DNA of 64,000 bases from Escherichia coli (GTDB lineage: Bacteria; Pseudomonadota; Gammaproteobacteria; Enterobacterales; Enterobacteriaceae): NCBI RefSeq assembly GCF_044324875.1, contig NZ_CP172185.1; one strand, 5' to 3'. The notes beneath the pieces are model-generated. The model did not search any database and was not told the origin of the DNA. It saw only the letters and a list, made by a program, of their open reading frames with translations. This document shows positions 40,412-63,606 of the stretch, one piece after another. The position numbers and the translations under genes were made by a program. Position 1 is the stretch's first letter. Each line of letters opens with the position of its first letter.

Positions 40412-41197
40412 TTAGTTCCGGATGTTTAAACGTGATATGCGCGGAGCCCTTCTTAAAGTATCTGATACTGAACATCTCATCTTCATAGCACTCTTTACCC
40501 TGAACAGACTGGATGTGCCATCCTGATGAATGGTTATGTTTTTCCCGTTGCCGGGGATGGGGGTGCCGCTGAACAGATGTAGCATTCTTTCCAGGTCGGC
40601 GAGTCGGTCAGTCTGTTGTCCGGTGATAAGATGAAATCCCCACCGGTCCCATCTCACCAGATTGTTGATAATGATTTTACTTCCAAATTTACAGGGAGAG
40701 TTGGTTTTATAATTCCAGCTCAGTTCCCTGAAGACGTTAATCACTCCCCGCTTAAACACCTCATCCTTGTTCTGGTGCACTTGTTCAAATGTGCTCAGAA
40801 TGTTCGCTTCACTGATTTCCGGAAAATTATCATATTCCAGTGACCTGTACCATGTATCACGTGCCTGTGCATCCATTAAGGAAAGCATCCCGGAACGCTG
40901 CATCAGGTTACGCCAGATTTCGCGGTCAAGATTCCGGGTAATGGCTTTCATTGCGGTTTCCTGTTTCTCCTTCAGCCAGCAGCCACAGCGAAAATCCTGT
41001 TTCATGGCCCAGTCCGGGGCGGTTTTACCTCCAATACTTTCCGTCAGAATTGAGATTTTAGCCAGTTGCCGGATAAGTGTGTCGATTGGCAACAGTGTAC
41101 TCTTTCGTACAGCCAGAATGTGGCAGACTGAGGTGGAACAGATAACGTCCGTATGCCCGCTGACCACCTCCGGGCGGGAGAGTGTGGTATCTGACAT
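40412..41197 (-). CDS. Island protein, DUF4942-like (gene commonly found after cbtA/yeeW in CP4-type islands)
   Basis: 261-aa ORF at the distal end of the toxin-antitoxin cassette; family assignment is from memory of typical cassette order, not a search. Confidence 0.5.
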   Translation of the reverse strand: MSDTTLSRPEVVSGHTDVICSTSVCHILAVRKSTLLPIDTLIRQLAKISILTESIGGKTAPDWAMKQDFRCGCWLKEKQETAMKAITRNLDREIWRNLMQRSGMLSLMDAQARDTWYRSLEYDNFPEISEANILSTFEQVHQNKDEVFKRGVINVFRELSWNYKTNSPCKFGSKIIINNLVRWDRWGFHLITGQQTDRLADLERMLHLFSGTPIPGNGKNITIHQDGTSSLFRVKSAMKMRCSVSDTLRRAPRISRLNIRN

Positions 41198-41281: not shown

Positions 41282-41707
41282 TCACCGGTTCTGGTGCAGA
41301 AGTTGCAGTTGGTGCAGGGTACGGATATCCTCCCTGGCCTGTTCGATACAGGGCAACAATGCTGCCGAATCCGTTTTATCCTCATCGTTGTCGAAAATAA
41401 TTCCGGACCCGCAGTCGATATTGTCCTGCAGCCACGCAATGAGGATATCCAGCGCTGTTTCAGTGGTTAATGGCATCACGCTCTGTATCACTGTATTGTC
41501 TTCCGGCAACTGATGAGAGCTGGCAGAAGTCGCCGGTGTTTCGGTAGCGTCACGTTCATCCACCACGCGGAGTGAATAACCGTATTCAGCGACCTTGTTA
41601 ATCAGTTCAGTGAGCTCAACACCATCAATGTCAACGACAATTCGCCCTATATTCAGTGCCTGTACGTTAACGCTGTCTGCTTCCAATGTCAGGGCCAGTT
41701 TCATCAT
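41282..41707 (-). CDS. YeeW-like protein (DUF5983-type)
   Basis: 141-aa acidic ORF whose start overlaps the cbtA-like stop (ATGA), as in yeeV-yeeW. Confidence 0.55.
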
Positions 41708-42078
41708 TTCGCCTCCGGATACTTACCCAGGGTAATGTTATTTACCGTTCTGTAATTGTCGCGGGTCATCAGGCCGGTCGCCCTGCGAGCCCGGAGGATA
41801 TCGATGCTGTTTATTAACTGAGAGCGGGTACAGGCGCTGAATCCCGGCTGGTCGGTACGCACCAGCGCGTATTTTTCCACGAGAAAGTTCACCGCATCAC
41901 ACAGTGAAATGCCTGCCTCAATATGCAGCTCAATCACGCGTTCATCCGCGAACGGTGTGTCATTCAGCGTAAGGCTGTAATGCTGGTCCAGTAACCGGGT
42001 GAGCAGTGTCTGCCAGATGGTGACGGGAGACGGGCAACACGATGCCTCCCGTACATGCGTGTCGGGTAATGTTTTCAT
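41704..42078 (-). CDS. cbtA: CbtA/YeeV-family toxin (type IV toxin-antitoxin system, cytoskeleton-binding toxin)
   Basis: 124-aa [37 protein letters not shown]... matching the YeeV/YkfI/YpjF family. Confidence 0.85.
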
Positions 42079-42167: not shown

Positions 42168-42536
42168 TTACTTTTTCGTTTCGGGCGTCGGATAAACAGC
42201 CAGATAAACGTAACCACAGGAGCCGAGGGTGTCGGCTTCACAGGTCAGCCCCTTCGCATACAGTGTCACGGTATGCTGATGGCGGGGATTCAGTTCACCG
42301 CTGGTGAGCATGAGCTCCAGTTGTTTCATCGGCAGCGGAAAGGCCTGGTCCGGATGGTACGCATCCGCATCTCTGAACCGGCCTCTGATACCGGCACGGT
42401 CGGCAAGGTAATGCAACCGGTTACCCTCCTGCACCAGACGTGCCCCGAAACAGGGCGTCACGGTGCAGGGCAGTCCCCACCAGAGGCGGTCGTGATTGTC
42501 GTCGTGATGCGTTGTCCCGGGGAGTGTGTCTGACAC
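42168..42536 (-). CDS. cbeA: CbeA/YeeU-family antitoxin
   Basis: 122 aa from GTG 42534-42536 ([48 protein letters not shown]...); RBS GAGG about 10 nt upstream; the track ORF is extended upstream in frame. Confidence 0.85.
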
Positions 42537-42585
42537 GATAAAATCCTCACAGAAAATCGTTGAATGATAGTTTAACTTTGACAGG

Positions 42586-43230
42586 TCAGCCGGTGCGCAG
42601 ACCGGCTTCGGTGAAGGTGTATTCGTTGATGAGAAGGGCCTCATCCACAGGGGCATCTGAGGTCAGCCTGTTGTGCTCGTTTTCCAGTTGACGGTACAGC
42701 CAGAAGGCCAGGTCGCGCAGGGCTTCGCTGACAGCGGCTTCCGCATCTGTTGTCATAGTCTGACCAGTCGGACTGTTCCGGGTAACAGTGATATCCATGC
42801 TGTACGGATGGCAGTAGCGTCCCCGGCGGTGGATTTCAGCCTGCAGTTGCCAGAAGTTACGCTTCTGCACCGCCTGCAGGGCATCCGCGATACGATGGAG
42901 TTCATGCTCCTGTGGGGCATACTTCCGGATTATCCGGGCTGTCGCCGGCTGCCAGTGCCAGCGTCCTTCAAAACAGGCTCCGTCCCCCTGGCTGCAGCAT
43001 CCGCTGAACCAGATGCACGGCTCTTCCATAAACCTGCCGTTGCTGAGCCGGAAAACGCGCTGGCGGAGGTCAATTCCGAAAATGTCACAGACCGCCCTGA
43101 AGTCCTCATACACGTTTTCATACCAGTTGCTGTCAGCATGATGCTGACGGTACCCGTCGCGGGCTTTTCCCCGTACCGGGCAGGAAAGTTCATCCAGCGT
43201 ATACACTGTGATGGTGATAATGCTGCTCAT
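42586..43230 (-). CDS. Cysteine-rich hypothetical protein (214 aa), unrecognised family, inserted between the DUF987 and antitoxin genes
   Basis: ATG 43228-43230 with RBS AAGGGG 7 nt upstream, 18 bp after the DUF987 stop; 10 Cys including a CIWFSGCCSQGDGAC cluster; no family recognised by me. Confidence 0.5.
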   Translation of the reverse strand: MSSIITITVYTLDELSCPVRGKARDGYRQHHADSNWYENVYEDFRAVCDIFGIDLRQRVFRLSNGRFMEEPCIWFSGCCSQGDGACFEGRWHWQPATARIIRKYAPQEHELHRIADALQAVQKRNFWQLQAEIHRRGRYCHPYSMDITVTRNSPTGQTMTTDAEAAVSEALRDLAFWLYRQLENEHNRLTSDAPVDEALLINEYTFTEAGLRTG

Positions 43231-43248
43231 CAGAATCCCCTTTCTGAT

Positions 43249-43470
43249 TCAGTTCAGGGTGACGCTCATCAGCCGGACATACGGGCCAAAACTGTCCTTA
43301 CGGCGTTCAGCAAACACGGCCAGCACACCGGGAATATCCTGTACTTCACGACCGGTATACGTCTCAGCACTGCCGTGCCAGCGGTACTTACCGGTGCAGA
43401 ACGGAAATAGACGGGATGCAGGATGCTGTTGGTGAATACGCATGGCTTCACCACGGGTGATAATTTTCAT
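43249..43470 (-). CDS. YeeT/YkfH/YpjJ-family protein (DUF987)
   Basis: 73-aa ORF MKIITRGEAMRIHQQHPASRLFPFCTGKYRWHGSAETYTGREVQDIPGVLAVFAERRKDSFGPYVRLMSVTLN, near-identical to remembered YeeT. Confidence 0.85.
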   Translation of the reverse strand: MKIITRGEAMRIHQQHPASRLFPFCTGKYRWHGSAETYTGREVQDIPGVLAVFAERRKDSFGPYVRLMSVTLN

Positions 43471-43532: not shown

Positions 43533-44009
43533 TTAAAGCAGACCATGTTCGGCAAAGGAGAAAACCTGGCTGCCACCGACTATCAGATGGTCCGGCACCC
43601 GGATATCCACCAGGCCCAGTGCCTGTACCAGACGTTCCGTGATAAGGCGGTCTGCCTTGCTGGGTGTGACTTCACCGGACGGGTGATTGTGCGCCAGCAC
43701 CACGGCAGCGGCATTGTGGTACAGGGCGCGTTTAATCACTTCCCGGGGATGGACTTCCGTGCGGTTGATGGTGCCGGTGAAGAGGGTTTCACCGGCAATC
43801 AGCTGATTCTGGTTGTTCAGATACAGCACCCGGAATTCTTCACGCTCCAGTCCCGCCATGTTCAGAATCAGCCATTCCCGTGCCGCATGCGTGGAGGTGA
43901 AGGCCACGCCGGGTTCATGAAGATGGCGGTCCAGGGCTTTCAGGGCCCGCTGAATGAGGCTGCGCTCTCTGGTTGTCATTTCTCCGGGCAGAAAGGAAAT
44001 CTGTTGCAT
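43533..44009 (-). CDS. RadC-like JAB/MPN-domain protein (YeeS/YkfG/YfjY family)
   Basis: 158-aa ORF with JAMM motif HNHPSGEVTPSKAD. Confidence 0.88.
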   Translation of the reverse strand: MQQISFLPGEMTTRERSLIQRALKALDRHLHEPGVAFTSTHAAREWLILNMAGLEREEFRVLYLNNQNQLIAGETLFTGTINRTEVHPREVIKRALYHNAAAVVLAHNHPSGEVTPSKADRLITERLVQALGLVDIRVPDHLIVGGSQVFSFAEHGLL

Positions 44010-44024: not shown

Positions 44025-44504
44025 TCAGTCAATGATGCGCATAATGGCGCTGCATTCCGGATGCTGCAGGGCGTAATCCCGCAGACGGTAATAATGAACC
44101 GTCATGGCATAACACTCCGTACGGCAGGCGTGATGACTGTACGTCATCAGACAGGCAGCAATGCCGGCGGCTTCCGGGCTCATTTCAGCGCGGTTACCGT
44201 TCATGGCATTGAACAGTACCCATGTTTCGTCATCATCATCATCCGGTTCGGGGGCCATAAATGCCCCGCCGTTGTTCAGGGTGTACAGATTCCAGATACC
44301 ACCGCAGTAGTCTTCGCACAGACGGTCCATCCAGCCGAAGACACTGGGCTCCAGGGTCACCCACTGTGGAATGAGGCCAAAATGCTGCGGCCAGAAGCTG
44401 ATGCGCTGTTCATCAGGGACGAGGCTGGCAACCAACTGAGGCGGATTATTCTCTGGTGTTGTAGCTGAATAAATTGTGGGGGTATTCTGAGAAACGGTTT
44501 TCAT
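44025..44504 (-). CDS. Antirestriction protein (KlcA/ArdB-like, YfjX/YafX family)
   Basis: 159-aa ORF with acidic stretch EPDDDDDE and the conserved C-terminal region of island antirestriction proteins. Confidence 0.85.
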   Translation of the reverse strand: MKTVSQNTPTIYSATTPENNPPQLVASLVPDEQRISFWPQHFGLIPQWVTLEPSVFGWMDRLCEDYCGGIWNLYTLNNGGAFMAPEPDDDDDETWVLFNAMNGNRAEMSPEAAGIAACLMTYSHHACRTECYAMTVHYYRLRDYALQHPECSAIMRIID

Positions 44505-44585: not shown

Positions 44586-45404
44586 TCAGCGCATGCTCTC
44601 CAGCAGCGTTTCTGCCATCACCCACAATGCGCGGTTGAGTTTTATATCGGTATCAATGCTGTGAATGGCCCGGGTATGGATACGTTTTCCTTTTGCACTG
44701 CGACCGGAAATCCCGCCTTTCAGCATATTCTCCTGGATGGTCTGATAAGCACTCCACAGGTCCTTACCGTAATCCTCCCGGCGTCGTGGTGTCAGAATGT
44801 CGGCGGTGGTGACGGGCTGATGTTCGTCACCATAACGGTAAGTCAGTGCCGCCTGTGCCAGCGCCTGGCGTGCCGGTGGCGGCAGGACCAGCGACTGCAT
44901 GGCATCACGCTTCTCCTCTATCCGGTCAAACACGCCCACCACCTCGTAAGCCCCTTCAATGACTCTGTCCACCACATTTCCCCGGTGCGGAACACGCACT
45001 TCCCCCCGAGACTGACCGCAGACGCATCCGTTCTGGCAGACGAACCTGAAGTAACCCGGCAGCATCTGGTAGCTGGAGGTACCGTCATGAGAGTTGAGCA
45101 GAATAATTTCAGGGACATGTTGTCCGTTTATCTCCCCGTCACGGCGCAGACGCAGCATGTGTTTGGTATACCCCCGGCGACCCGGGTCACGTACGCGGGT
45201 CTGGCAGGCGAAGAATGGCTGAAAGCCTTCCCGCTGCAGGCTTTCCAGCACGGTGATGGTGGGGATGTATGTATAGTTCCGGCTCCGGGAGGTGTGTTTA
45301 TCTTCCCCGAAAATCCCGGGCACATGGTGCATCAGCTCTTCACGGGTCAGCGGACGGTCACGGCGTATCTGGTTCGCATAACCAAAACGACTGGCTAATC
45401 GCAT
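44586..45404 (-). CDS. DUF932-family protein (YfjQ-like)
   Basis: 272-aa ORF, ATG with RBS GGAG; conserved first gene of the antirestriction-radC-TA cassette. Confidence 0.8.
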   Translation of the reverse strand: MRLASRFGYANQIRRDRPLTREELMHHVPGIFGEDKHTSRSRNYTYIPTITVLESLQREGFQPFFACQTRVRDPGRRGYTKHMLRLRRDGEINGQHVPEIILLNSHDGTSSYQMLPGYFRFVCQNGCVCGQSRGEVRVPHRGNVVDRVIEGAYEVVGVFDRIEEKRDAMQSLVLPPPARQALAQAALTYRYGDEHQPVTTADILTPRRREDYGKDLWSAYQTIQENMLKGGISGRSAKGKRIHTRAIHSIDTDIKLNRALWVMAETLLESMR

Positions 45405-46458: not shown

Positions 46459-47343
46459 TCAGAACAGGTGATCCCACAGAGTGACCAGCAGGTGGATAAT
46501 GCGGTCCCGGGTTTTGCGCAGAAGCTGTAACATCCAGGCCGGAAAACTGAAACGGGCAACGGCGTCGTCAAAACTTTTCCCGATGGTTTCACCAAAAGTC
46601 TGTTGTGCGTGTTTCTGGACCCGTTCAGAGCGGTTTTCCCCCCGGATATGTGAATAAACCGCGCTGGTTGCCTGTGGCGGCAGTGCGTGGATCATCAGTG
46701 ACACCAGTGCCGGAATATTCCAGCCGACAGGCGCGGCAACGGGGAGTACCGGAAATGATGAAGGGAACAGGGTTGCCACCCGGGCTGTCACCGTCGCCAG
46801 CGAGAGTTCCTGGTGACGGGACGGGCATTTTTCTGTGTCGTTCCATTCTTCAGCAGGAAATACGCGATCGGCATGGCTGAGAACAAACAGAAAACGCGAG
46901 GGATCTGCACCTTCATTCAGTAAAAACTGATGCATGGCGATGTCGGCAGCATACGCACGTTCATCAGCCCGCAGGATCCAGATAATCAGATCCAGTTCGG
47001 GCAGTAACTGACTGTAAAGTGCCCGGTATTCCTGATCATGCTGTGGTGTTTCGCCAGTGCCGGGCAGATCGACCAGCGTCATTCTTCGTTCACCGGGCTG
47101 AAAGGTAAGACGATGAGCCTGACGGGTGCAGCCGTTCAGCGGATGCGTGGCGCAGACACGGGACTGAAAAATGGCATTGCACAGGCTGCTTTTTCCGGCA
47201 CCGGATTTACCCATAATGCCAATCACGGGCTCGTAATGAATAACACTGTGGAGATGTTCAAGGATTTTCTGGCGAATTTCTTCAGGAAGAAACGTCAGAT
47301 ATGATTTCACTTGTGCGGAGAGGGAAGAATGGCTGAATGACAT
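46459..47343 (-). CDS. YeeP/YfjP/YkfA-family GTPase
   Basis: 294-aa ORF with P-loop GIMGKSGAGKSS and G3 motif DLPGTG; typical lead gene of CP4-type island cassettes. Confidence 0.85.
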   Translation of the reverse strand: MSFSHSSLSAQVKSYLTFLPEEIRQKILEHLHSVIHYEPVIGIMGKSGAGKSSLCNAIFQSRVCATHPLNGCTRQAHRLTFQPGERRMTLVDLPGTGETPQHDQEYRALYSQLLPELDLIIWILRADERAYAADIAMHQFLLNEGADPSRFLFVLSHADRVFPAEEWNDTEKCPSRHQELSLATVTARVATLFPSSFPVLPVAAPVGWNIPALVSLMIHALPPQATSAVYSHIRGENRSERVQKHAQQTFGETIGKSFDDAVARFSFPAWMLQLLRKTRDRIIHLLVTLWDHLF

Positions 47344-47448
47344 ACCGGTATCCTGTTGATTTCACTGAACCGGATCACACTAATCCGGTTTATCATTCAG
47401 GTAATATGGGCGTGAAAAAATCTGGAGTGACAAAGTTCGGGAGGAGTG

Positions 47449-48399
47449 ATGGCATCACTGTCGATTAATACGCTACGCCGAATGAGCATTTGTAAAAGTC
47501 AGGCCTGGAAAGATACCCAGCGAATACTGAAGCGTAGTGGACTTGTGTACAGAGGGGAACGGTCAGAATCGTTTGATCCTGAGAAACATTTTAATCGTTA
47601 TACGGTGCGTTATCTGTACCTGCTTAACATAATTGCGCTTAAGATAAGGTCGGTTAGTAAATTTTCCTGTTGGATCGAGGTGGGACAATGCCATCGTATG
47701 ACTGGTAAACATTTATCTCTTAATGCCCCGCCTTTTATGCTGATTCCGCGTAGTATCCGGAGAAAAGTGGATGGATTCAGACAGTCAAAAGGTGAAGCAA
47801 CCCCAAAATCGGCTCAACCGTTCACGGGCAGTTTGTATGAGGTTTTGAGAAAGGAGAGCGATTCAGCTAAGCTGGACGCATGGATTGCTGAACTGCCTCT
47901 GAACTTGCAGGAGGAGGGAAAGGAAATCTCAGTCATGGGATTTAGTCCACGGGCTGTGGCCCGACCTGTTCTTCGGTCAGCATCCCCGACGTTTGAACTG
48001 TTTTATCAGGAGTATCAATCCCTAAGATTAAAATCTGTTTTTAAATTTGAACCAAGATTTGAACAACTTTTAACAAGACTGAGCTTTAGAAAACAATCAA
48101 TTCTCAGAAAACAACAATACAGGGTTAAATCGCAATTACTGGAGAGACTGGGGAATGTGTTGTTTTTCACGTCGCTTTATAACCAGGGATGTTTAGAGGA
48201 GTTTATAAATGCACTTGTGGAAAAGGAGGACATTTATCTGAAAATGTCCCCTGGGGAGGAAAAGGTGAAAGCACACCAGAAAATGGTTAACTACATTGAA
48301 GCGTTCTGCAACAAAATGACGGAAAAATACCTGATGCCCGCAGCAAGCAGACACTACAAAAAGAAGAAAATCGCCAGGAGCGAAAGTGGTGAAAGTTAA
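47449..48399 (+). CDS. Hypothetical protein (316 aa), low GC, unrecognised family
   Basis: Strong RBS GGGAGGAG 4 nt before ATG 47449; divergent from the GTPase gene; basic and coiled-coil-rich; no motif I can assign. Confidence 0.55.
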   Translation: MASLSINTLRRMSICKSQAWKDTQRILKRSGLVYRGERSESFDPEKHFNRYTVRYLYLLNIIALKIRSVSKFSCWIEVGQCHRMTGKHLSLNAPPFMLIPRSIRRKVDGFRQSKGEATPKSAQPFTGSLYEVLRKESDSAKLDAWIAELPLNLQEEGKEISVMGFSPRAVARPVLRSASPTFELFYQEYQSLRLKSVFKFEPRFEQLLTRLSFRKQSILRKQQYRVKSQLLERLGNVLFFTSLYNQGCLEEFINALVEKEDIYLKMSPGEEKVKAHQKMVNYIEAFCNKMTEKYLMPAASRHYKKKKIARSESGES

Positions 48400-49184
48400 T
48401 CCAGTCTACCGTACAGAATCAGTTGTTCCAGAATAGCCTGCTGTGTTGTTTTCCGCTCTCTGGTCAGTCTGTCCAGAGCGCTTTTTGCGGATGGCGATAT
48501 CTTTACGTTGATTTGTACCCGTTTATCTTTTTTTCCATCGATAAACTGTTTTCTGAATGCATTGTGCATCTTGTCGAAAAATCTTTCTTTTGCAGCGAAT
48601 CCTAGGTGAAATTCTTTTGGCGTCAGTAAACAGGGTGTGTCTGTGGGGAATAACATTTTTAGTAAAACTACAATGGCAATATATCTTTCGTTATCATTTA
48701 CAGGATTAAACCAGGAAAGATATGTGGGTGAGATACGTGCATCAATATATTCCCATGCCCATTTCAGTTGTTCGGTATTCTTTTTAAGCCATTTGGCTTC
48801 GTTTCTCTTTTCGAGTCCCAGCCAGTTTTGATGCATTATTGAGATAATCCGATCTGCTTCCCCATAAAGGATTAACGCATTAATCCATTTCCCTATAACA
48901 TTCAGTCGTGTTTCATGACTTGAAGGAATAATTGTCATGGGGTTATCCTTCATAACGATCACCCCCTTCAAGGCAGAGTTGAACTCAGATTCATTATTAA
49001 GTTTAAGTTTTTCGGGAACTGTATGAGACATAATTAACCAGAACCAGAATGCTGCAATTTCATTTTTTCTGATCCATTCAGGTATGTGATTATCTGCCAG
49101 ATTATTATCATTCAATAAATGCTCAGTTGTTTTATTTTTCCAGTCATATCTATTCACGTTATAACCGCCTTTATATTGTTTCAT
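48396..49184 (-). CDS. Hypothetical protein (about 262 aa), low GC, C-terminal ribbon-helix-helix-like segment
   Basis: ATG 49184 with RBS GAGG 8 nt upstream (the track ORF starts 29 codons earlier); stop overlaps the convergent gene stop by 4 nt; C-terminus KISPSAKSALDRLTRERKTTQQAILEQLI resembles RHH DNA-binding folds. Confidence 0.5.
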   Translation of the reverse strand: MKQYKGGYNVNRYDWKNKTTEHLLNDNNLADNHIPEWIRKNEIAAFWFWLIMSHTVPEKLKLNNESEFNSALKGVIVMKDNPMTIIPSSHETRLNVIGKWINALILYGEADRIISIMHQNWLGLEKRNEAKWLKKNTEQLKWAWEYIDARISPTYLSWFNPVNDNERYIAIVVLLKMLFPTDTPCLLTPKEFHLGFAAKERFFDKMHNAFRKQFIDGKKDKRVQINVKISPSAKSALDRLTRERKTTQQAILEQLILYGRLD

Positions 49185-49804
49185 CTGATTACGCCTCAAT
49201 CGTTTTCTTTTCTGGTGATTTTCACCATCACATGTCAGTTGTATATGCAAGGGGATCAATAAAAATATCACCCTGCAAGCACTTCAAAGCTGATTATGGG
49301 GATATTCTAGAACTATTCACAAAACTATTCCAGACATATCAAGAACTATTTCTTGACCTATTCATAATAAAATAAAACATGCTATCAACTACGGCTCATA
49401 TTCTCCTTGGGGGTGTCGTTGTACTGTTCGACTGTTCTTGTGGTCAGATTAACAATCTGAAGAGTAAAAGCGACAGTAATCTGTCTGTTATAGTGGCGAT
49501 AAAAACACTGAATGCGCATCCTGTATGTGAAATCCTGTCATGTAGAGCAGTAAGCAATGACAGACATGCATGTTATATGTGAAGGGGGCCGGGAGACGAC
49601 ATAATCAGTATGGCTGTCATTCTGGTTGTAAAACGCGATCACTTTCCGGGGGTAAAAGATGATATGGAGGTTGACAAACGGTTTGCTTCGGATTGTCTTT
49701 TCTGGGGCCTGAAATACGAGGGCAGAAAAATAATTCCAGAGTAAATCTGCTCTGTTTTTAGGACAGAAAACTCCATGCTGGCTGTAAAAGTGAAAAATTA
49801 ACAC

Positions 49805-50881
49805 CCAGTATGTATGGAAGTCTGAAGATGTTGAGAATGTCGGTATGATACTATATACACATATTTTACTAAGTATTTTTACTAAGCATTTCAGTAAGTG
49901 TTATACACGTATTTTCTACTAAGTGTTTTACCAGACATACACGTGTTTTCATAAACAGCCCTATAAGTGTTTTCATTAAGCATTGCTGTACACATTGCTT
50001 TGTCTGAAACACATCCAGTTTAGTAAATCTTTACGTTAGCTAAAATCAGTTTAAAGCTGCTGTAAAACCTTTCTGTTTAAGCAATCAATCTGCTATTCGA
50101 TTTTACTGATGTTGCGTTTAACCTTTTCTGAGATTTCGAGTTTCGACGTTAGCATGAGAAAAGTATCTTTACGCTAAATCAACCCGAACTTTCCTGAAGT
50201 AATCTGACGTTTTTTTCGATGTGCTTACGACGATTCTGTTAAACGACTTTCTGGATGTTTTGATAACAATCAGATTGAGGCATTAACGATTCCTGACGTT
50301 TTCTTTTCCGTGTAAGGTCATTCTTTTTGTCATGAGGTTTCTTCTTGCATTGCGAAAGTGTGATGAACGGTTTTGGTGTTTTTGATTCAGATAAGGTTTA
50401 CGTTATCGATGGTTAATCGTTTTTATGGTGCGTAGTGAAACGTAACTTTTTCAGGATGAGAAAATCGATTCTGATGTTGGTGATTTTTGTTCTTGTGGCG
50501 GGGTTTATCTGTAAACAGGTTTTAAACGTGTCATTCACATCCGTGATTGAGTTGTGTGATTAAGCTGTAGGTTTTGGGGTTGTTGTTGATTTGCATTACC
50601 AGGAAGCGTTCTGGTTGCGTTTCTGGTGTTTTGTTCGAATGTTCTGTGGATCCTTTTCCCTTCTGACTTTTCTCGTTGTCCATGTCGTTTTTAAATCCAT
50701 TCGCTGTTCTTGAGTGTTTTTACCCTGCGTGTAGAATTATCTTTTCGTTCCGGGATGGTTTGTTCCGTTTCAATCACTCTTAATCAGAGAGTTGTAGCAT
50801 TGCTCAATGCCGGATGCCGTAAAGTTTTACCGCGGTGATTAATGATGTGAAGTCAATCCAAATCAACGGAGATCTCTCATC
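49805..50881. other. ORF-free, T-rich (plus strand) 1.08-kb non-coding region with repeated short motifs, upstream of the first gpII-like gene
   Basis: No ORF of 60 aa or more in any frame; strong T over A and G over C skew on the plus strand; repeated TAAGTGTTTT-like and TTTTCG/GTTT units. Confidence 0.5.
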
Positions 50882-51613
50882 ATGAATCAACCAATACATA
50901 ATGCTTACTGGTTATCCCGTTTTGACAGCCTTCTCGACAGTGCCCTGGCGCAGCACCGTGCCGTCTCGTTAATCCGGGTGGATTTACGTTTCCCTGAGTA
51001 TATGCCTGTCACCATCATGGATCCCGATCCGGATTCAGCGGTGATTTCTCGTTTTTTTGCATCCCTGAAAGCCAAAATTCAGGCTTACCAGCGGAAAAAA
51101 AGATGTGCCAATCAGCGTGTGCATGCAACCAGCCTGCGTTATTTCTGGTGCCGGGAGTTCGGCAAGGAAAAAGGCAGGAAACATTATCACGTGATATTAC
51201 TGCTCAACAAAGATACCTGGTGCTCGCCAGGGGATTTCACCGTTCCTTCTTCGCTGGCGACACTGATCAAGCTGGCATGGTGTAGCGCTCTGCATCTTGA
51301 GCCCTGGCAGGGTAATGGACTGGTTCATTTTTCCAGGCGGACGCCTTTCCGTAAACCGGCATCATCTGATGCTCGCCCTTCTTCCGATGATACGCCTTTG
51401 TCGGGTGGATGTTCTGATACCAGGAAGGCTTCAGAAAAAAAGCCGGGTGAAGCCGCTGTTCTCTGGATCAAGCGTGGTGATGTGGAAGCGCTGCAGAAAG
51501 CCCGGAACAGAGCCAGTTATCTCGTGAAATATGAGACGAAGCAGCATGACGGTTCCGGGCAACGTAATTATGGTTGCAGTCGTGGGCCGGGGCGTCTGCT
51601 GGATGGCAGGTGA
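50882..51613 (+). CDS. Inovirus gpII-like (YagK/YfjJ-family) protein, putative HUH-type replication initiator
   Basis: 243-aa ORF with HYHVILLL (His-hydrophobic-His) motif; family typical of P4/CP4-like islands. Confidence 0.65.
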   Translation: MNQPIHNAYWLSRFDSLLDSALAQHRAVSLIRVDLRFPEYMPVTIMDPDPDSAVISRFFASLKAKIQAYQRKKRCANQRVHATSLRYFWCREFGKEKGRKHYHVILLLNKDTWCSPGDFTVPSSLATLIKLAWCSALHLEPWQGNGLVHFSRRTPFRKPASSDARPSSDDTPLSGGCSDTRKASEKKPGEAAVLWIKRGDVEALQKARNRASYLVKYETKQHDGSGQRNYGCSRGPGRLLDGR

Positions 51614-51939
51614 GCCCTGTAAAACGACATCCGGTGCCTGAGCTTATGCTACAGGACGTTGGCTGACGCCCTTAGCTCGTTTTCTGAAAAAGTCGTCCTG
51701 AAGTCATGCAACGGTATTTTTCTCTGCTTTCGCTCCTGGAAACACTCCGTCGGTAAAACCTTACTGTCCTGCTTAATGATGTGAACCGAAGTCAACGGAG
51801 ATCATTCATTCTGAACCTGCATCCGGTGTTCTGTCCCTTGTCGGTTACCTGATCTTCCCGTTCTGCCGCGGTTTTTCACTTATTCCATCAACCCCATACG
51901 CAAGCCATAACACGTCAGCGCATCCACGGGCAGGACGCG

Positions 51940-52542
51940 TTGTGGGCTGCGTATAACGGAACATATCTTATGAATGCTATCCCTTATTTCGACTATAGCA
52001 TGGCGCCCTTCTGGCCATCTTATCAGAACAAAATCATCGGCGTTCTCAACCGTGTGTTGCGCGAGCAGTCCTGCTCCCGAATACGGCGGATCCTGCTTCG
52101 TCTGCCGGGGGAACATGGCAACATCTTCAGCGACAGAAAAACCTGGTTCGGTATGGCCTTTATCGAAACCGTCAGTGCGCTGATGAATGCAACCCCCGGA
52201 CGCGACCTCTGCTGGCTCCTGACCCGTCATCCTGAAAAACCGGAATACCACGTGGTGCTGTGCGTCAGACAGGAATATTTCGACGGCCCTGAGCTGGACC
52301 GGTTGATTCTGGATGCCTGGAGCAACGTACTGGGCTTCGCGTCACCGGGTGAAGCAGCACCGTACCAGAAACAGATAACCCGGGATGTGGTGCTGGACAG
52401 TTGTTCACCGGACTGCGAAGAGAGACTCAAAGAGCTGATATGGGCGTTCAGTGATTTCGCCCGCGATCGTCGTGGTGTGCGCGATCCGGAAGCCCGTTAC
52501 CTCGCCGGTAATCCCTGGTATCCCGTAGCAGGCCAGCTCTGA
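51940..52542 (+). CDS. Inovirus gpII-like (YagK/YfjJ-family) paralog
   Basis: 200-aa ORF with EYHVVLCV motif and a similar upstream sequence motif to the 50882 gene. Confidence 0.6.
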   Translation: MWAAYNGTYLMNAIPYFDYSMAPFWPSYQNKIIGVLNRVLREQSCSRIRRILLRLPGEHGNIFSDRKTWFGMAFIETVSALMNATPGRDLCWLLTRHPEKPEYHVVLCVRQEYFDGPELDRLILDAWSNVLGFASPGEAAPYQKQITRDVVLDSCSPDCEERLKELIWAFSDFARDRRGVRDPEARYLAGNPWYPVAGQL

Positions 52543-52610
52543 AAGCTCAGCTCAGCAGATTCACCCGCATTTGCCCAACATTCATAAATCTCACAGAGGA
52601 CATTCTGACC

Positions 52611-52847
52611 ATGTTGACCTCAATGACAGGTCACGACAGCGTATTGCTGCGTGCCGACGATCCCCTGATCGACATGAACTACATCACCAGCTTCACTGGT
52701 ATGACCGACAAATGGTTTTACAAGCTGATCAGTGAAGGCCATTTCCCTAAACCCATCAAACTGGGGCGCAGCAGCCGCTGGTACAAAAGTGAAGTGGAGC
52801 AGTGGATGCAGCAACGAATCGAGGCATCACGAGGGGCAGCAGCATGA
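52611..52847 (+). CDS. alpA: AlpA-family prophage transcriptional regulator (P4-type)
   Basis: 78-aa ORF with MerR-like HTH (ITSFTGMTDKWFYKLISEGHFPKPIKLGRSSRWYKSEVEQWM). Confidence 0.8.
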   Translation: MLTSMTGHDSVLLRADDPLIDMNYITSFTGMTDKWFYKLISEGHFPKPIKLGRSSRWYKSEVEQWMQQRIEASRGAAA

Positions 52848-53596
52848 AACGTGTTGTAATGCCGGTACGCTGGCAATGTGCAAAATACCAGCGTTGGTAT
52901 TGTGGAAATCAGCCCTGTCCCTGGTGCTGGCGACCTGCTGCCCCCGTCTGTCATTCCTCGTTCTTCGCTGTAACAGGCATCGTACCGGTCTCGGCGTGCT
53001 TTCCTGCGTACCGACACCGGTTCAGCAACATTCAAGGGGATCAAATCGTGCAAATAACCGAAACCGTACTTTCAGAGCCGGTGGAAATCCGGCGTTTTAT
53101 TCAGCAGGCGGTGGATCACTGGCCGCGTCTGCTGGCCGTCCACTTCACACTCCATTCGGCAGAAGGAAACATCAACGGACAACAGATTCATGCATTCTGT
53201 ACTTCCTTTTACCGACAGGTGCACGAGCGTATTACTGAACGTAATCACACGGCCAGTCCAGCACCACCGGTGGTATTACGCTGGTTGCGGGAACAACATG
53301 GAGGAGCAACAATGCGATGCCTGTTGCTGCTCAGCCAGACGAGCATTTGCCATCCACGGGTCAGTGCCACGGTTGATGAAGAATGTTCGCAACGGGTGGA
53401 TTTATTGCAACAGACATGGCGGGTGATAAGTGCTGACGGACAATGCCGGGTGGAAAGGTGTTTTCAGGCTGCCCGGGGTGATACATCCGGCCAGTATATT
53501 GCGTTAAAAACAGTTGCATTGTCTCTGGGGTTACCGGTTGTGACCGGTATTACCCATCGCCCGGTACAGCGCTGTACATTGATTACAGCTCAGTGA
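52844..53596 (+). CDS. Hypothetical protein (250 aa), translationally coupled to alpA; possibly a third gpII-like paralog
   Basis: ATGA overlap with the alpA stop; contains AVHFTLHS in a context resembling the other two paralogs; Cys/Trp-rich N-terminus. Confidence 0.45.
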   Translation: MKRVVMPVRWQCAKYQRWYCGNQPCPWCWRPAAPVCHSSFFAVTGIVPVSACFPAYRHRFSNIQGDQIVQITETVLSEPVEIRRFIQQAVDHWPRLLAVHFTLHSAEGNINGQQIHAFCTSFYRQVHERITERNHTASPAPPVVLRWLREQHGGATMRCLLLLSQTSICHPRVSATVDEECSQRVDLLQQTWRVISADGQCRVERCFQAARGDTSGQYIALKTVALSLGLPVVTGITHRPVQRCTLITAQ

Positions 53597-53613
53597 ACAG
53601 CGCTGTTGTGCAG

Positions 53614-53916
53614 TCAACGAGGTTTTCTGTCTTTTCGTCGGTCATTCAGCATCATTAAACGGGTCTCTGCCTCTTTCTGTTCCTGTGGTGTCACTTCCCC
53701 GCACGGCTGACCGTTCAGGTTGTAACGGGCGCCACCTGCTATTAACGCACGGTAATAGCGCGGAGACTGCACATAAGACGCCACTGCTGCATGTAATGTA
53801 CCAGCGCCAAACGCCAGTTCTCGGATGGCGATATCCTGTATCAGGTCGTCAGGTATCCCCACTTTAAGTGGTTTTGTTTTTTTCCCGGTTGAATGACTCA
53901 GGCCAGAGTTCCACAA
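53614..53916 (-). CDS. Hypothetical small protein (100 aa); uncertain, possibly a remnant
   Basis: ORF convergent with the alpA module; an adjacent 64-aa ORF (53931-54125) lies on the same strand, so both may be fragments of one decayed gene. Confidence 0.25.
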   Translation of the reverse strand: MWNSGLSHSTGKKTKPLKVGIPDDLIQDIAIRELAFGAGTLHAAVASYVQSPRYYRALIAGGARYNLNGQPCGEVTPQEQKEAETRLMMLNDRRKDRKPR

Positions 53917-54510
53917 GACGAATAATGCGCTTACGGTTTTTGCTCTGGCGTTTTGTCATGTCGCCACGGTGTTTTATCAGCAGGTTTCTGTTTATCGTTC
54001 AACTGTGGTATCTGGTCACCGGCCTTCATTTTGTATGCTGTGTCCGTTTTATCCTGCAGCGGCGTTGCCGGTGATTTACTGAAAATACCCTGCGGTTTAC
54101 GGTTAATGGTCAGAGTTACCATCAATTTTGTTACCTCGCGCTGTCAATGGAAGTAGTACCTCATCCGATATCTGAAAATGTTTTCCGGTGGATGTTACAG
54201 CGAATTTCATGTAAGACATGTTGTTGTCGGTATTGTTCAGTACTGTGCGTTGTGAGCGTATTCGTTATCAGACAGAGGGGCAGGGAACAAACGTCAGAGG
54301 TTAAGGATATCCGGGAACAAATGGCGTAAACGGACATCTCAGTGCCTGAGAAACAGTACAGGTCAGGCCATCATGGCCTGCAAACAGAGCCCTGGCGACC
54401 CCGTGGCCGAAAACGAAACAATAACCCGCGCGCAGTGCGAGGAATCCGGATGTGAAGCAATCAGCAGGTAATATTAATGGCAGGACCAGCAGGTTCTTTA
54501 AACAAACGAA

Positions 54511-55273
54511 GGTGGTGACTCCAATTAGTAGAACATATATTTTTCGATAAAGGCACCGATGACTTTTTCATGAAGTTCTACAGAGCGCGAGAAACAGATA
54601 GTTCTGCGGGCCAGACGTTTGATTCGGGTTCTCAGAGGTAGATGTTGCGCTCAATGCGCTGAGTAAAAATCTTACCAGTCAGATGCTTCTCCTTCGGTAA
54701 CTCTCTGGTGTAACTACCCCATTCGTCAGTGGTCAACATACCGATGGTAAAAGGGCAAGCAGCGCCAGCAATTCACGACAGGTTTAATCAGTCCGTAGGC
54801 CAAAAGTGTAGGCCAGAACGCCACCAGTTTTCGTGTTGTACGTGTACCAGAGCCAGTGCTGTCGCGCTTTACTGCCGACAAAACTCCATTGCTCATCAAG
54901 TTCGCAGATGAGTGCCATATCAGCATGAGCGACCGGGTATGACGTTATTCTTCGTGGCGAGAGTTTTTTAAAGTCCGGATGACAGTATTAATGCCGATTT
55001 TCAGCGTACGGGCAGTATCGCGAACTCCGGCACCGTTGAAAGCCATTTCAGTGATTTGCTCTTTAACTCCCGGTTTACGGGCCTCGTAACGGTAAGTGAG
55101 CTGAAGCACTCGATGACAGTCACGGCAGCGAAATCGATCATGTCCTTTGGGTTCTTCCCGTGACGGTAAACCTGAACGGACTGGCAACAGGAGCAATGAA
55201 GGTTAACTGTGACCATGAAAGAACCTTAAAAGTGGCTATTATACTCCTAATTCAACTAATTGGAGTCATTACC
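54511..55273 (-). mobile_element. IS1-family insertion sequence (divergent isoform), apparently defective
   Basis: 763 bp; terminal repeats GGTGGTGACTCCAATTAGTAG (left) and AATTGGAGTCATTACC (right); InsA-like and InsB-like coding on the minus strand, each split across two frames. Confidence 0.8.
54945..55216 (-). pseudogene. insA: insA-like gene with internal frameshift
   Basis: Zn-finger N-terminus (MVTVNLHCSCCQSVQVYRHGKNPK) is in one frame and the HTH C-terminus (GHDRFRCRDCHRVLQLTY...AFNGAGVRDTARTLKIGINTVIRTLKNS) in another; downstream InsB-like sequence (...RTRIKRLARRTICFSRSVELHEKVIGAFIEKYMFY) is also split. Confidence 0.6.
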
Positions 55274-55281
55274 GTATTCAT

Positions 55282-55452
55282 AATGGATTAGGTTCAGCAG
55301 TTGCTGAAGTGCTTGTAGAAACTTGTCCTGTGCCCATGCGTCGGGTGGGGGTTAAAGAGCGGTATGGCCAGGTTGAAACTCAGGACTTTTTACAGAGAGA
55401 GTACGGGTTAACCGCGCAAGCTATTGTGGCGGCAGCCAGAGAGCTATTGTAA
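55282..55452 (+). pseudogene. Transketolase C-terminal-domain remnant, truncated by the IS1 insertion
   Basis: Frame encodes ...GLGSAVAEVLVETCPVPMRRVGVKERYGQVETQDFLQREYGLTAQAIVAAARELL-stop, a typical transketolase C-terminal tail, beginning immediately after the IS1 right end with no upstream gene body. Confidence 0.55.
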
Positions 55453-55653
55453 TTCATGGAGTTTGTTTACCATTCTGTTTTTCTTAAAAGTGAGTGTCTG
55501 TGCGGTCACTAAACTCGGTAATAAAGCAGTTCATTGCAGGATAAGAAGCGTTTGGTTGTGTCGTTTTACCGTAAGAACCGACCGCCGTATGTATCCATTA
55601 AGCCAGTATTGGTAACGTAGGTGCCCACCTTTTCAAACTGGTGGGCGCCTGTT

Positions 55654-55826
55654 ATGGAGCAAAAACATTATCCGCAGAACCCCGCAGATCATTTTCAAAT
55701 GAGTTAAACTTCAAATGGTTAAACTGGTTTTGCAACCAGGAGCCTCTGTTGCCCGTATTGCCCGGGAACACGATATCAATGATAACCTCCTGTTCAAATG
55801 GCTCAGACTCTGGCAGAACGTAAGGT
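55654..55826 (+). pseudogene. Transposase helper (HTH OrfA-type) remnant of an unidentified IS
   Basis: Short frames encoding MEQKHYPQNPADHFQMS-stop and ...LQPGASVARIAREHDINDNLLFKWLRLWQ, resembling IS OrfA HTH segments; interrupted by stops. Confidence 0.3.
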
Positions 55827-55904
55827 AAAGGGAGATGAAAAAGGCAATAGCAGAACTGAGTGACAGTGAAACCATTCTGGCGTACAGGGTTGGATGGTGA
55901 AACT

Positions 55905-55938
55905 GATAAAAAACCCTCTGAAAATTCTGTCAGAGGGT
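55905..55938 (-). terminator. Candidate rho-independent terminator (minus strand)
   Basis: Perfect 8-bp stem ccctctga/tcagaggg with 8-nt loop, followed on the minus strand by T6. Confidence 0.35.
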
Positions 55939-56649
55939 GTAGTCAAAAATGGTAGATATTTACGATGCAGTAATGCTTTCACTCCGGTAATTAATTTCCG
56001 TGATTAACTGCTTTCGATCAATAAAGGAATTGCAAAAGTGTGATCTTGTTCACGACATTGTGGATGATAATATGCCTGATGTCTGAATCCGGAAACAGTG
56101 ATCTGGCGGTTTCATGTGAAGTTGACGGATAAAAAATCCGCACGACCAGACAGACGTGCGGTTTACGAAATTCGTAACAAGAGGCTTTTCTACGGATCAC
56201 GTGGTGCGTGCCACGTGAAATTTTTGTAGCGCAAAATGTGTGATGTGTAAATACAAGGAAGGAAAAAAGTTAAATCGGTGGAAGTCCATGCCTGCCACAT
56301 GTATGTCTGCATTCCTCGTTTTGAACAGAATTCTCACCAGACATCGTGAATTTCTCATTCAATCATCAGAGATATTACCCAGGATTTTTATTGTTTTGTG
56401 ATAGCAGTACTTTAAATGTTCAGATGCTAAAATAAGCGCGCTTATTATAATTATAGTTATGATGTTTTATCTGTATGTATTTTAATGATTTTCGCGTCAT
56501 TGCTTTTCTGCTGCTTAAATTGAAGGCGCATATTATACACAATAATATTCCTGGCATTATTAAATTAATAAAAGAGGATTCTTATCACTGTATTTTTGCT
56601 CCGCACTACCGTTCTGGCTGGTGAAGTAATAATACAGGAGAATAACAGA

Positions 56650-58197
56650 ATGCTTAAAAGACGTGATGCTTTTTTAAAGAAAAGCGCGCTGGCAGTGAGT
56701 GTGGCCCTGCTGCTCTCGGCTCAGGCTCAGGCTCAGGATATTTTAATCGGACCGATTGAACCTGGCGAAGATAATAGCTTTCTTGTTGGAGAATCAGTAG
56801 CTGGCCGTTCGATTGATAAAGTAAGAAATGTATGGTTGATTGGTGATGATTCTTTTTTATTAGACTCAAACAGGACTGTGCTTTTGGGGAATAATTCTGA
56901 TGTTGTGAACTCTCCGGGAAGTGTGAGTCTGGGGCATGATGCACTTATTGCTGACTCTGAATGGGGGACTGTTGCAGGAAAAGAAGCGTCACTTATTTCT
57001 TCTCGTCAGAGCTCGGCAATTGGTGCGTTTTCATCTGTGCAGGATTCTACCAGTTCTGTAGCTCTGGGCCATGGCTCACAGGTGTCGGGAGAAAATAACG
57101 TGGTATCTGTTGGTGCCGGGCCTGAGGGATATGGAGAGAGTGTCAAAGGAGCACCGGAAACCCGCCGGATTATAAATGTGTCTGATGGTATCAATAACAC
57201 AGATGCAGCGACGGTAGGGCAACTGAATGAACGATTTGATGATGCACAGGTCTTTTTGTTGCAGACGAATGAAAGAATTGACGAGACAGATAAACGTCTT
57301 TCAACAGTTCATGCTGAACTCAGCAGGGATATTATTGCAGGCACATCGGCAGCGGTGACGTATACAGATGTAACAGCGCTTGCACTTCAGGATGAGATAA
57401 AGGATGGGACGAACAAAGTACGTGATGAGTTGAAATCACAGGGAGACAGTCTGCGTGGTGAGATAGGCGGTGTATACAGAGATGCCCGTGCTCATACTGA
57501 CAGTCAGGTCACAGCAGTACGTGATGAACTGAAGGCAGAGGGAGACAGTCTGCGCGGTGAGATAGGCGGTGTATACAGAGATGCCCGTGCTCATACTGAC
57601 AGTCAGGTTACAGCAGTACGTGATGAACTCAGCAGGGATATTATTGCAGGCACATCGGCAGCGGTGGCGTATACGGATGCATCTTCTCTTGCTCTTCAGG
57701 ATGAAATAAAAGAAAAAGCGGATGAAACAGTTCAGGTTTCCCGGGCTTATACAGATAAAAGTGTACGGGATGCCCGTAAAGAAGCGAAAAGCCAGGCAGA
57801 ACATCTCAGCGATGTGCTTGTGAAGAACAGGGCGCAGACGGATGCAGCAATAGCCTCAAATACAGCAGCGATAAGGAATAACAGTCATCGTCTGGATTTG
57901 ACGGAAGCCTGGCAGAAGATGGCGACAGAGAGAATGAATAATATGCAGGAGCAGATTAAAGAGAACCGGAAGGAGTTAAGGGAGAGTGCAGCCCAGAGCG
58001 CGGCACTGGCAGGTCTTTTCCAGCCATACAGTGTTGGAAAATTTAACGCGACAGCAGCCGTTGGTGGTTACCGTGATGAGCAGGCCATTGCGGTGGGCGT
58101 GGGCTACCGTTTCACAGAGAATGTGGCAGGAAAAGTTGCAGTTGCTGCAGGTGGGTCATCCGCATCGTGGAATGCTGGTGTGAATTTTGAGTTCTGA
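56650..58197 (+). CDS. YadA-type trimeric autotransporter adhesin (515 aa; Eib/Saa-like size class)
   Basis: Signal peptide [29 protein letters not shown], repetitive coiled-coil stalk, and C-terminal YadA-like anchor ending ...[19 protein letters not shown] 9 nt upstream; AT-rich 5' region. Confidence 0.8.
57313..57730 (+). repeat. In-frame tandem and nested repeats inside the adhesin stalk
   Basis: A 105-bp unit (...[33 protein letters not shown]) occurs twice in tandem (about 57424-57528 and 57529-57633), flanked by two copies of a second roughly 100-bp unit ([16 protein letters not shown]...ALQDEIK) at 57313 and 57625. Confidence 0.7.
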
Positions 58198-58258
58198 CAG
58201 GTCAGGATTTAGATATCTGTCCCGGGGGGAGTCCCCCGGGATATAATGAGGTACAGAG

Positions 58259-58714
58259 ATGCTGGATATAATCCTGGCGACGAGAGATATTTATTTTGAA
58301 AAAGCCCTGCGAGAGATATTTGGAACCGTAAGCAGTCGAATCAGATATATAGAAGATGCCATATCAGACAGAAGAAGGGTGCAGTCAGGCAGGTCATTCA
58401 GATATTATTTTGTATTCTGTGATGATGAGTATACAGATATTGTTCGTATTCTTTTTACCGGAGAGGCCTGCTGTATTCTGAATAAGTCGATGCTGAATCT
58501 GAGAGCGGCCGGAGGTGTGTTGACGCTGGAAGAGCGCAGAGCGGTACTGAACCGGTATTACAGAGGTTTAAGTATTGCGGAGATTACAGAAGAGACGGGG
58601 CAGAATGACAAGACGGTATACGGTCATCTTCGTCGTGCACTGCAGCGGTCTGGATTCCGGAAGGGGCGTTTTATAAAGGGGAGAGAAGCGGCGGGGGATT
58701 CAGGTGTTGAATAA
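58259..58714 (+). CDS. Putative transcriptional regulator with C-terminal sigma-70 region 4 / LuxR-type HTH
   Basis: 151-aa ORF; C-terminal LTLEERRAVLNRYYRGLSIAEITEETGQNDKTVYGHLRRALQ resembles sigma region 4/GerE-type HTH; 60 bp downstream of the adhesin gene. Confidence 0.45.
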   Translation: MLDIILATRDIYFEKALREIFGTVSSRIRYIEDAISDRRRVQSGRSFRYYFVFCDDEYTDIVRILFTGEACCILNKSMLNLRAAGGVLTLEERRAVLNRYYRGLSIAEITEETGQNDKTVYGHLRRALQRSGFRKGRFIKGREAAGDSGVE

Positions 58715-58788
58715 TGTATCTTATATTGTGATATTGAACCGCCCCGGGAATCCTGGAGACTAAACTCCCTGAGAAAGAGGTAAACAGA

Positions 58789-59115
58789 ATGACTAAAAAT
58801 ACTCGTTTTTCCCCCGAAGTCCGTCAGAGGGCGATTCGTATGGTTCTGGAAAGTCAGGGCGAATATGACTCACAGTGGGCGGCAATTTGTTCCATTGCCC
58901 CAAAGATTGGCTGTACACCGGAGACTCTGCGTGTCTGGGTACGCCAGCATGAGCGGGATACCGGAGGCGGTGATGGCGGGCTCACCACCGCTGAACGTCA
59001 GCGTCTGAAAGAGCTGGAACGTGAAAATCGTGAACTGCGCCGCAGTAACGATATCCTTCGCCAGGCTTCCGCTTATTTTGCGAAGGCGGAGTTCGACCGC
59101 CTCTGGAAAAAGTGA
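58789..59115 (+). CDS. IS629 transposase OrfA
   Basis: 108-aa [63 protein letters not shown]... matching IS629 OrfA. Confidence 0.9.
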
Positions 59116-60002: not shown

Positions 60003-60410
60003 GTTCACAGATAAAACACTCTCCAGGAAACCCGGGGCGGTTCATATCGGTGCTGCTGCTGTTATTTTTTGTTGTATTTGTGACGAATGGTTAAGAATAA
60101 AACATGAGTTGGTGATTATCAGGACAGGTTGCTTGTATATGAAGATAACAAAGGCGGCATTTATTTTTGCGCTGTCAGTGTGGAGTGTTGCTGTGATATG
60201 TCTTTTATTATTTGTACTGGTTGTTCTGGGATAGCTATAGTGGAATTATTATTTTTTTAAGACTATGGTTTATATTTTTATTCGGCAATATTTCTGTAAA
60301 CAATTAAATATCAGAAAGGCGTGTTGTATGCGTGAACACGCCTGAGTATGTATACAGAGATTGTTAATTTGGAGAGAATAATTACAGTTGTTATTTATTT
60401 GACGTCCTGA

Positions 60411-61981: not shown

Positions 61982-62018
61982 GTAAGCGTACAGCGAGGGC
62001 CGTATTGACGGGGATGTG

Positions 62019-63557: not shown

Positions 63558-63606
63558 AAGCCCGTATTTTACCGGGCTTATTCTGTGACAACCAGGATAA
63601 AGAGAT

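Follow-up and report, generated by a model that had tools for sequence, protein, structure and literature searches.

CbtA toxins and the antitoxins of the CbeA/YeeU family form type IV toxin-antitoxin (TA) pairs. In Escherichia coli K-12, the antitoxins alone neutralise the toxins, and the pairs, whose cassettes do not hold the gene discussed here, act as two-gene systems (PMC5371832). In Erwinia, a cloned cbeA-cbtA locus suppresses CbtA toxicity (PMC6521040). The leading regions of conjugative elements have been described as arrays on one strand that are enriched in anti-defence, TA and uncharacterised genes (PMC11541004), and YfjX, CbeA, YagB and YfjZ, which belong to sister cassettes of K-12, are translocated by the type IV secretion system of F (PMC11288057). 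In this study, we analysed a 64,000-nucleotide (nt) stretch of E. coli DNA (RefSeq assembly GCF_044324875.1, contig NZ_CP172185.1; hereafter the window), in which such a cassette holds a minus-strand gene for a 214-aa protein at 42586-43230, called ORF214 here, between the DUF987 gene and the antitoxin gene. The initial annotation had described it as a cysteine-rich gene inserted into an otherwise canonical cassette. We found that ORF214 is an original member of the cassette that has been lost repeatedly, and that the K-12-type islands of E. coli are deletion derivatives.

This conclusion is based on the deletion scars that are carried by the cassettes lacking ORF214. Among the 5426 complete E. 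coli genomes surveyed, DUF987 was located at 14093 places in 4917 genomes and ORF214 at 2950 places in 2045 genomes by megablast, while a sensitive blastn search detected some piece of ORF214 at 7170 places in 3705 genomes and a copy spanning 80% or more of its length in 1942 genomes. Thousands of the places found by blastn match nt 533-645 of ORF214 alone, under no annotated feature. In strain 214-4, the terminal 113 nt of the gene stand directly after the DUF987 stop and are followed by the conserved 49-nt spacer and the GTG start of YeeU, a junction that results from a clean 550-bp deletion. In the CP4-44 island of K-12, the 73-nt spacer between yeeT and cbeA keeps the ribosome-binding site (RBS) and the first 19 nt of ORF214 (26 of 29 positions identical) and then jumps to the final ~25 nt ahead of cbeA. 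The CP4-44 locus itself, beside tmaR and yeeA, carries an intact yeeT-ORF214-cbeA-cbtA-yeeW order in strain 22AR0010; the copy of E. coli B is a frameshifted pseudogene, and all three K-12 cassettes are without the gene. Cassettes lacking ORF214 thus hold its remnants, and the gene cannot be called interposed. The statement that DUF987 lies directly before the antitoxin gene is correct for the three K-12 cassettes and for most E. coli copies (14093 against 2950 places), but this adjacency is a derived and not an ancestral state. The textbook picture, which takes the K-12 order as canonical, is corrected in this respect, and over one third of complete E. coli genomes retain the fuller form of the cassette.

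The CP4-44 scar of K-12 MG1655 (locus L003, 2552-2602) forms a 16-codon open reading frame (ORF; MSRIIATTGPFLADFL, then a stop) behind the old ORF214 RBS. It stops ~11 nt before the GTG of cbeA and is unannotated in RefSeq; it could serve as a leader ORF or a coupling ORF for cbeA.

ORF214 is a genuine gene, and purifying selection acts on it. The ATG-started minus-strand frame is present in the ORF list of the window, and its ratio of nonsynonymous to synonymous substitution rates (dN/dS) was 0.12-0.23 against the Klebsiella and Salmonella orthologues. The differences between the window and Klebsiella were distributed as 70/50/111 over the three codon positions of this frame, and no stop was found in it in four other alleles.

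The family to which ORF214 belongs is very large. In a collection clustered at 90% identity, 2285 homologues were found at E<=1e-3, many of them of 214 aa, and at the same threshold 2739 clusters were found at 50% identity. PHROG 5162 matches the protein from end to end (residues 3-212, E=7.5e-31) and is without an assigned function in PHROGs. Pfam gave no match to ORF214 even at E<=10, nor to any of the 119 members of our family alignment, and its precomputed Pfam tables were blank, though they hold families with very recent accession numbers. NCBIfam and PADLOC gave zero matches, in agreement with the initial annotation, which could not assign the protein to any family. Searches of the PDB by sequence and by profile returned chance matches only (E>0.5), and fold comparisons revealed no similarity to nucleases, helicase cofactors or DNA-binding proteins. 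The ORF214 family is without any relative of known function, and its predicted fold is without a solved relative.

In RefSeq and UniProt, the members (for example, WP_045146861.1 and WP_000086752.1) bear the labels 'hypothetical protein', 'antitoxin of toxin-antitoxin stability system' or 'antitoxin of the YeeV-YeeU toxin-antitoxin system', and intact copies are named 'hypothetical protein' by the current Prokaryotic Genome Annotation Pipeline. The 'antitoxin' name is unsupported and misleading. The initial annotation had allowed that ORF214 might prove to be a common, annotated cassette member with known function; it is common and annotated, but no function is attached to it. ORF214 is therefore already catalogued and common in occurrence, and it is neither an unusual insertion nor a metal-binding novelty. 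A homologue in Acinetobacter phage vB_AbaM_CP14 (locus L106, 2992-3591) is labelled 'RNA polymerase binding protein'; this label was rejected, as the labels around it are implausible, with neighbours of 46-73 aa deposited as sliding clamp (62 aa), clamp loader and DNA polymerase (65 aa).

The family signature is polar and glycine-rich, FSGFxSQGDGA(C/S)FEG. The residues E14, L15, G52, Q81, D83, H141, W177, Y179, F206 and G210 are near-invariant; Y139 and R172 are kept by over 80% of the members. The window protein keeps the signature and all the near-invariant residues, with the sole exception of a change of F78 to Cys. Its AlphaFold2 (AF2) model has a predicted local distance difference test (pLDDT) score of 96.2. 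The family is acidic, with a median isoelectric point (pI) of 4.78 and a median net charge of -15. ORF214 is a soluble alpha/beta protein that stands alone and is acidic in most members.

Outside E. coli, the gene was found on several kinds of mobile elements. A survey of contigs from one genome per species gave 542 confirmed matches, and the neighbourhoods were taken from the best 80 of them; 79 of these 80 loci were from Alphaproteobacteria, and none of the 79 had YeeU or CbtA nearby. More distant members were found beside an integrase gene with an N6-methylase gene, beside a DNA methylase gene, and in arrays with DUF2958, DUF7007 and SNase genes. Plasmid records with ORF214 numbered 108, of which 41 were predicted to be conjugative. 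The 45 phage records always placed ORF214 in one-strand arrays of small hypothetical genes; among the carriers were virulent giant phages of Caulobacter and Brevundimonas, Lana-like phages of Pseudomonas, Acinetobacter Saclayvirus and a few Escherichia phages. In CcrPW and related giant Caulobacter phages, ORF214 lies inside the terminal repeat.

We propose, with about an even chance of being right, that ORF214 serves mobile elements as an establishment or anti-defence factor, a role that is read from its genomic context. In integrative and conjugative elements (ICEs), plasmids and islands, its same-strand neighbours encode ArdB/KlcA (PF03230), ArdC, SSB, ParB, RadC/JAB and DUF932 proteins and orphan methylases. 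It is this same-orientation company, together with the presence on three kinds of mobile elements and the shedding of the gene by immobilised islands, that points to the establishment or anti-defence class. ORF214 would then be part of an ancient 'establishment' gene set of ICEs, plasmids and virulent phages. In the E. coli island, the transcript from which it is translated is probably a long minus-strand one that also covers the DUF932, ArdB-type, RadC/JAB, DUF987, CbeA and CbtA genes. The protein would act soon after entry of the element and might bind or chemically alter a conserved host component as an anti-defence or host-takeover factor. The putative working surface consists of the FSGFxSQGDGA(C/S)FEG loop together with E14, Y139, H141, R172, W177 and Y179. 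Once an island has become immobilised, the gene would be dispensable, which would explain its repeated deletion in cryptic islands such as those of K-12. As a very large family confined to mobile elements, without a Pfam model and under a misleading 'antitoxin' label, it is a reasonable candidate for anti-defence screens.

Several observations weigh against this proposal. The context is guilt by association, and the same neighbourhoods hold DNA-metabolism genes. The polar motif is conserved over thousands of clusters, which is more typical of an enzyme or a ligand binder than of a fast-evolving decoy inhibitor; this conserved cluster of polar residues suggests a ligand-binding or catalytic site over a simple decoy. 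Literature searches by family name and accession found no study or experiment on any member. The window allele itself is less acidic than the family (pI 5.9, net charge -5) and deviates from the family at three positions with a conservation of 80% or more (A19V, F78C and D108E). Its dN/dS against other E. coli alleles was 0.43-0.48, and therefore the window copy may be decaying.

With regard to this allele, 14 of its 27 private substitutions fall within the first 76 nt of the gene (nt 9-76, window 43155-43222), where they turn ELSSTAQEKARDW into ELSCPVRGKARDG. This cluster could be a recombination tract or local decay. At >=99% identity, the window allele was present in 46 complete E. coli genomes only, against 1954 genomes with alleles in the 90-95% band.

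A bolder version of the proposal, which we put forward tentatively and think rather doubtful, is that ORF214 is the founder of a new structural family whose members serve as anti-defence or host-takeover effectors, perhaps as enzymes acting through E14/Q81/D83/H141, and which is common to ICEs, plasmids, virulent phages and enterobacterial islands. The loss of the gene would then mark the domestication of CP4-type islands, and the CbeA-ORF214-CbtA arrangement of the Klebsiella type could be a true three-part module.

A different role is suggested by the alphaproteobacterial ICEs and plasmids. Here, a recurrent block runs from ArdC, DUF2958, a ~709-aa ParB_N protein and several small genes to a 138-aa gene and ORF214, and continues downstream with a ~1450-aa strawberry-notch-type helicase (AAA_34/Helicase_C_4), DUF7146/Toprim_3 and YAcAr. 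ORF214 could accordingly be an accessory of DNA metabolism, working with the helicase, the toprim protein, ParB, SSB and a translationally coupled 138-aa partner in the processing or replication of the element DNA after transfer. The stop of the 138-aa gene overlaps the ATG of ORF214 by 8 nt in 62 of 65 alphaproteobacterial loci (L004-L083; L094, 9592-10008), the helicase and DUF7146/Toprim_3 genes follow close downstream in ~39 of 49 loci, ParB_N and SSB genes lie upstream, and the conserved polar residues could belong to an enzyme. However, the Enterobacterales cassettes and the phage arrays keep ORF214 without the helicase, the toprim gene or the 138-aa partner; an acidic protein is disfavoured as a nucleic-acid binder; and the fold comparisons mentioned above are at odds with such a role. 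We therefore regard a role in DNA metabolism as unlikely. The 138-aa protein carries the motif DYFTHFSC...WGFxYANxCSKPR and has no Pfam family; hhalign found it unrelated to both CbeA and ORF214, and no counterpart of its gene was found in the E. coli cassette.

The Phaeobacter plasmid pP97_c has the order ParB ... SSB ... DUF932-RadC-RadC-DUF6878-x-x-138aa-ORF214-MbcA/RES-methylase/helicase-toprim, and the order DUF932-RadC-...-ORF214-(TA) is common to it and the E. coli cassette. In the alphaproteobacterial elements, the gap between ORF214 and the helicase gene is an insertion hotspot, with MbcA/RES and PIN TA pairs and a PF03230-like antirestriction gene among its inserts (L109, 14704-15803; L094, 10666-11317; L042, 2390-3316; L072, 6658-8202; L031, 4662-5144; L032, ~7235). 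It also holds what we take, from reading the sequences by eye, to be a DUF1778/GNAT-like pair, a Fic protein and a DUF4326-like gene. The TA pairs in this gap probably explain the 'antitoxin' name as a case of guilt by association.

The position of ORF214 had led the initial annotation to suggest an accessory factor of the type IV TA pair, and it may be asked whether the protein is a third component of the CbtA/CbeA module that modulates the activity or stability of the toxin or the antitoxin, as the 'antitoxin' label in the databases would also imply. In Enterobacterales, ORF214 invariably lies close beside the pair: in E. coli it precedes cbeA, and in Klebsiella and Salmonella it separates cbeA from cbtA. 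In Klebsiella and Salmonella diarizonae (locus L059), the order is DUF987-CbeA-ORF214-CbtA-DUF4942 with gaps of 13 nt and 33 nt, so that the CbeA/CbtA 'pair' is physically split by ORF214 in these genera. Several E. coli genomes carry natural 343-aa ORF214::CbeA fusions, and some alphaproteobacterial loci have unrelated TA pairs directly downstream of ORF214 (MbcA/RES and PIN, and the DUF1778/GNAT-like pair and Fic protein read by eye). On the other hand, YeeU and CbtA co-occurred with ORF214 in 1 of the 80 best species loci and with none of the distant and phage members, so that most of the family is without a CbtA/CbeA neighbour, and virulent phages carry the gene. ORF214 is also absent from most E. 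coli cassettes, including those of K-12, where the antitoxins suffice, as does the cloned cbeA-cbtA locus in Erwinia. ORF214 had no profile similarity to CbeA: there was no PF06154 match at E<=10, the hhalign probability was 0.3%, and the model did not show a YeeU-like fold. Taken together, these data leave a third-component role quite improbable, and the suggestion of an accessory factor was not upheld.

The argument from the 343-aa fusions was rejected as weak Rosetta-stone evidence, since the fusion results from the loss of a stop by one base and fusions of cassette genes are frequent. The change is a single TGA to TTA in an allele whose 15-nt spacer keeps both genes in frame; an allele with an ORF214-CbeA spacer of 15 nt is present at locus L098. 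Similar accidental fusions join CbeA to DUF987, CbtA or DUF5983. An AF2 model of an ORF214::CbeA fusion/linker chimera gave a predicted template-modelling score (pTM) of 0.66, with a poorly modelled CbeA part (pLDDT 44-72) and no confident interdomain packing, and so speaks neither for nor against a contact between the two proteins. Public protein sets hold many singleton fusions of cassette genes, such as DUF987::CbeA, CbtA::CbeA, DUF5983::CbeA, antirestriction::ORF214 and RadC::ORF214, which probably arose from point mutations, recombination between paralogous cassettes or assembly errors. In Salmonella diarizonae (locus L059, ~5290-6000), two tandem CbeA-like genes, one of them very divergent, stand ahead of ORF214, which is followed by CbtA.

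The suggestion of a cysteine-based metal-binding fold started from ten cysteines and from the motif CIWFSGCCSQGDGAC. We counted seven cysteines, at positions 17, 48, 72, 78, 79, 86 and 140, and the window allele does have four of them within 15 residues (72, 78, 79 and 86). In the family, however, Cys occupies these seven positions in 1%, 35%, 28%, 1%, 17%, 58% and 19% of the members, respectively, and the number of cysteines per member ranges from 0 to 10 (median, 3.5). The family has Phe at position 78 in 90% of its members and Asp or Glu at position 17, and even the best-conserved cysteine, C86, is Cys in 58% and Ser in 35% of the members. The motif is therefore partly specific to the window allele, no cysteine is conserved family-wide, and a conserved set of Cys/His ligands of a metal-binding domain was not found at these positions. 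The AF2 model, at pLDDT 96, is an ordinary alpha/beta domain without metal. A metal-binding protein of this kind is very improbable.

That ORF214 is a mere shadow of the plus-strand ORF at 42673-43410, which had been named as a possible true coding strand and which does exist, open for 245 aa in the window, is almost certainly wrong, because in the plus-strand frame the substitutions among orthologues fall mostly at the first codon position, dN/dS against the Klebsiella and Salmonella orthologues is ~0.9-1.3 and the four other alleles have one or two stops each, because this ORF also overlaps the conserved DUF987 gene, and because homologues of the minus-strand product number in the thousands and are of conserved length; it is the plus-strand ORF that is the antisense shadow, of ORF214 and DUF987, and it is not a gene.

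The surrounding cassette agrees with the flanking order that had been described. Its gene names follow the RefSeq annotation of a 99.8%-identical locus and an NCBIfam match for RadC; ORF214 itself shares 99.8% DNA identity with the gene of RefSeq WP_045146861.1. On the minus strand, the order is GTPase, a 225-aa hypothetical protein, DUF905, DUF932, antirestriction, RadC/JAB, DUF987, ORF214, YeeU, CbtA, DUF5983, DUF4942 and ynjB. The DUF932 gene (44586-45404) opens a tightly packed run, followed by the antirestriction gene of the ArdB/KlcA type (44025-44504; PF03230 on homologous genes), the RadC-like JAB-domain gene (43533-44009; NCBIfam TIGR00608, 149.8 bits, above the cut-off) and the YeeT-like DUF987 gene (43249-43470), which is immediately upstream of ORF214. 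Downstream are the CbeA/YeeU-family antitoxin gene (42168-42536, with its GTG start at 42536; homologues with PF06154), the CbtA-family toxin gene (41704-42078), the YeeW-like DUF5983 gene (41282-41707), which overlaps the CbtA stop, and the DUF4942 gene (40412-41197), the final gene of the cassette ahead of ynjB.

The spacing around ORF214 was as claimed. The DUF987 stop is followed by an 18-nt spacer (43231-43248, minus strand), ATCAGAAAGGGGATTCTG, in which the RBS reads AAAGGGG (~43237-43243), and the ORF214 stop is separated from the GTG of the antitoxin gene by 49 nt (42537-42585, minus strand). A simple scan found no promoter-like or terminator-like site on the minus strand between DUF987, ORF214 and YeeU. 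Owing to this tight spacing and the lack of such sites, co-transcription of the three genes, which had been proposed for ORF214 and the TA pair, is plausible from the sequence and fits the data at that level. The nearest terminator-like hairpin upstream is a strong one of 12 pairs followed by a T-run (45482-45453, minus strand), located between DUF905 and DUF932; therefore, DUF932 may start the transcription unit that holds ORF214.

Upstream of its cassette, the genome with the 99.8%-identical locus carries an island (window 47000-64000; locus L108) that holds an inovirus Gp2-family gene, a helix-turn-helix regulator gene, a frameshifted ProQ/FinO-family gene and insertion sequence remnants, together with a YadA-like adhesin gene and the aerobactin iuc/iutA operon. 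This island is a pathogenicity-island-type element that ends beside ynjB. In the CP4-57 island of K-12 (locus L105, 2420-3369), yfjX and yfjY have been renamed lfgA and lfgB by RefSeq. LfgB, which is RadC-like, has been reported to act as a protease on the antitoxin MqsA and to cleave it (PMC10846083), and the product of the RadC/JAB gene of the window is the same kind of protein.

Among known systems, the antitoxins CbeA, YeeU, YafW and YfjZ (PF06154) are the neighbours of ORF214 in Enterobacterales, where they adjoin it, are probably co-transcribed with it and are occasionally fused to it by a stop-codon mutation. Tripartite modules composed of a toxin, an antitoxin and a chaperone or another accessory protein offer an analogy. 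ORF214 resembles their third component in Klebsiella and Salmonella, where it lies between the antitoxin and toxin genes, but it differs from them in that it is not limited to TA loci, is absent from most CbtA/CbeA loci and has no similarity to SecB-like chaperones. In comparison with ArdA (PF07275), ArdB/KlcA (PF03230), ArdC (PF08401) and Ocr, ORF214 has no sequence or fold similarity, and an activity like theirs is predicted for it from context; however, it occupies the same kind of genomic address and is likewise small, soluble and acidic. It also differs from the decoy inhibitors in its polar motif, which is more strongly conserved than is usual among them.

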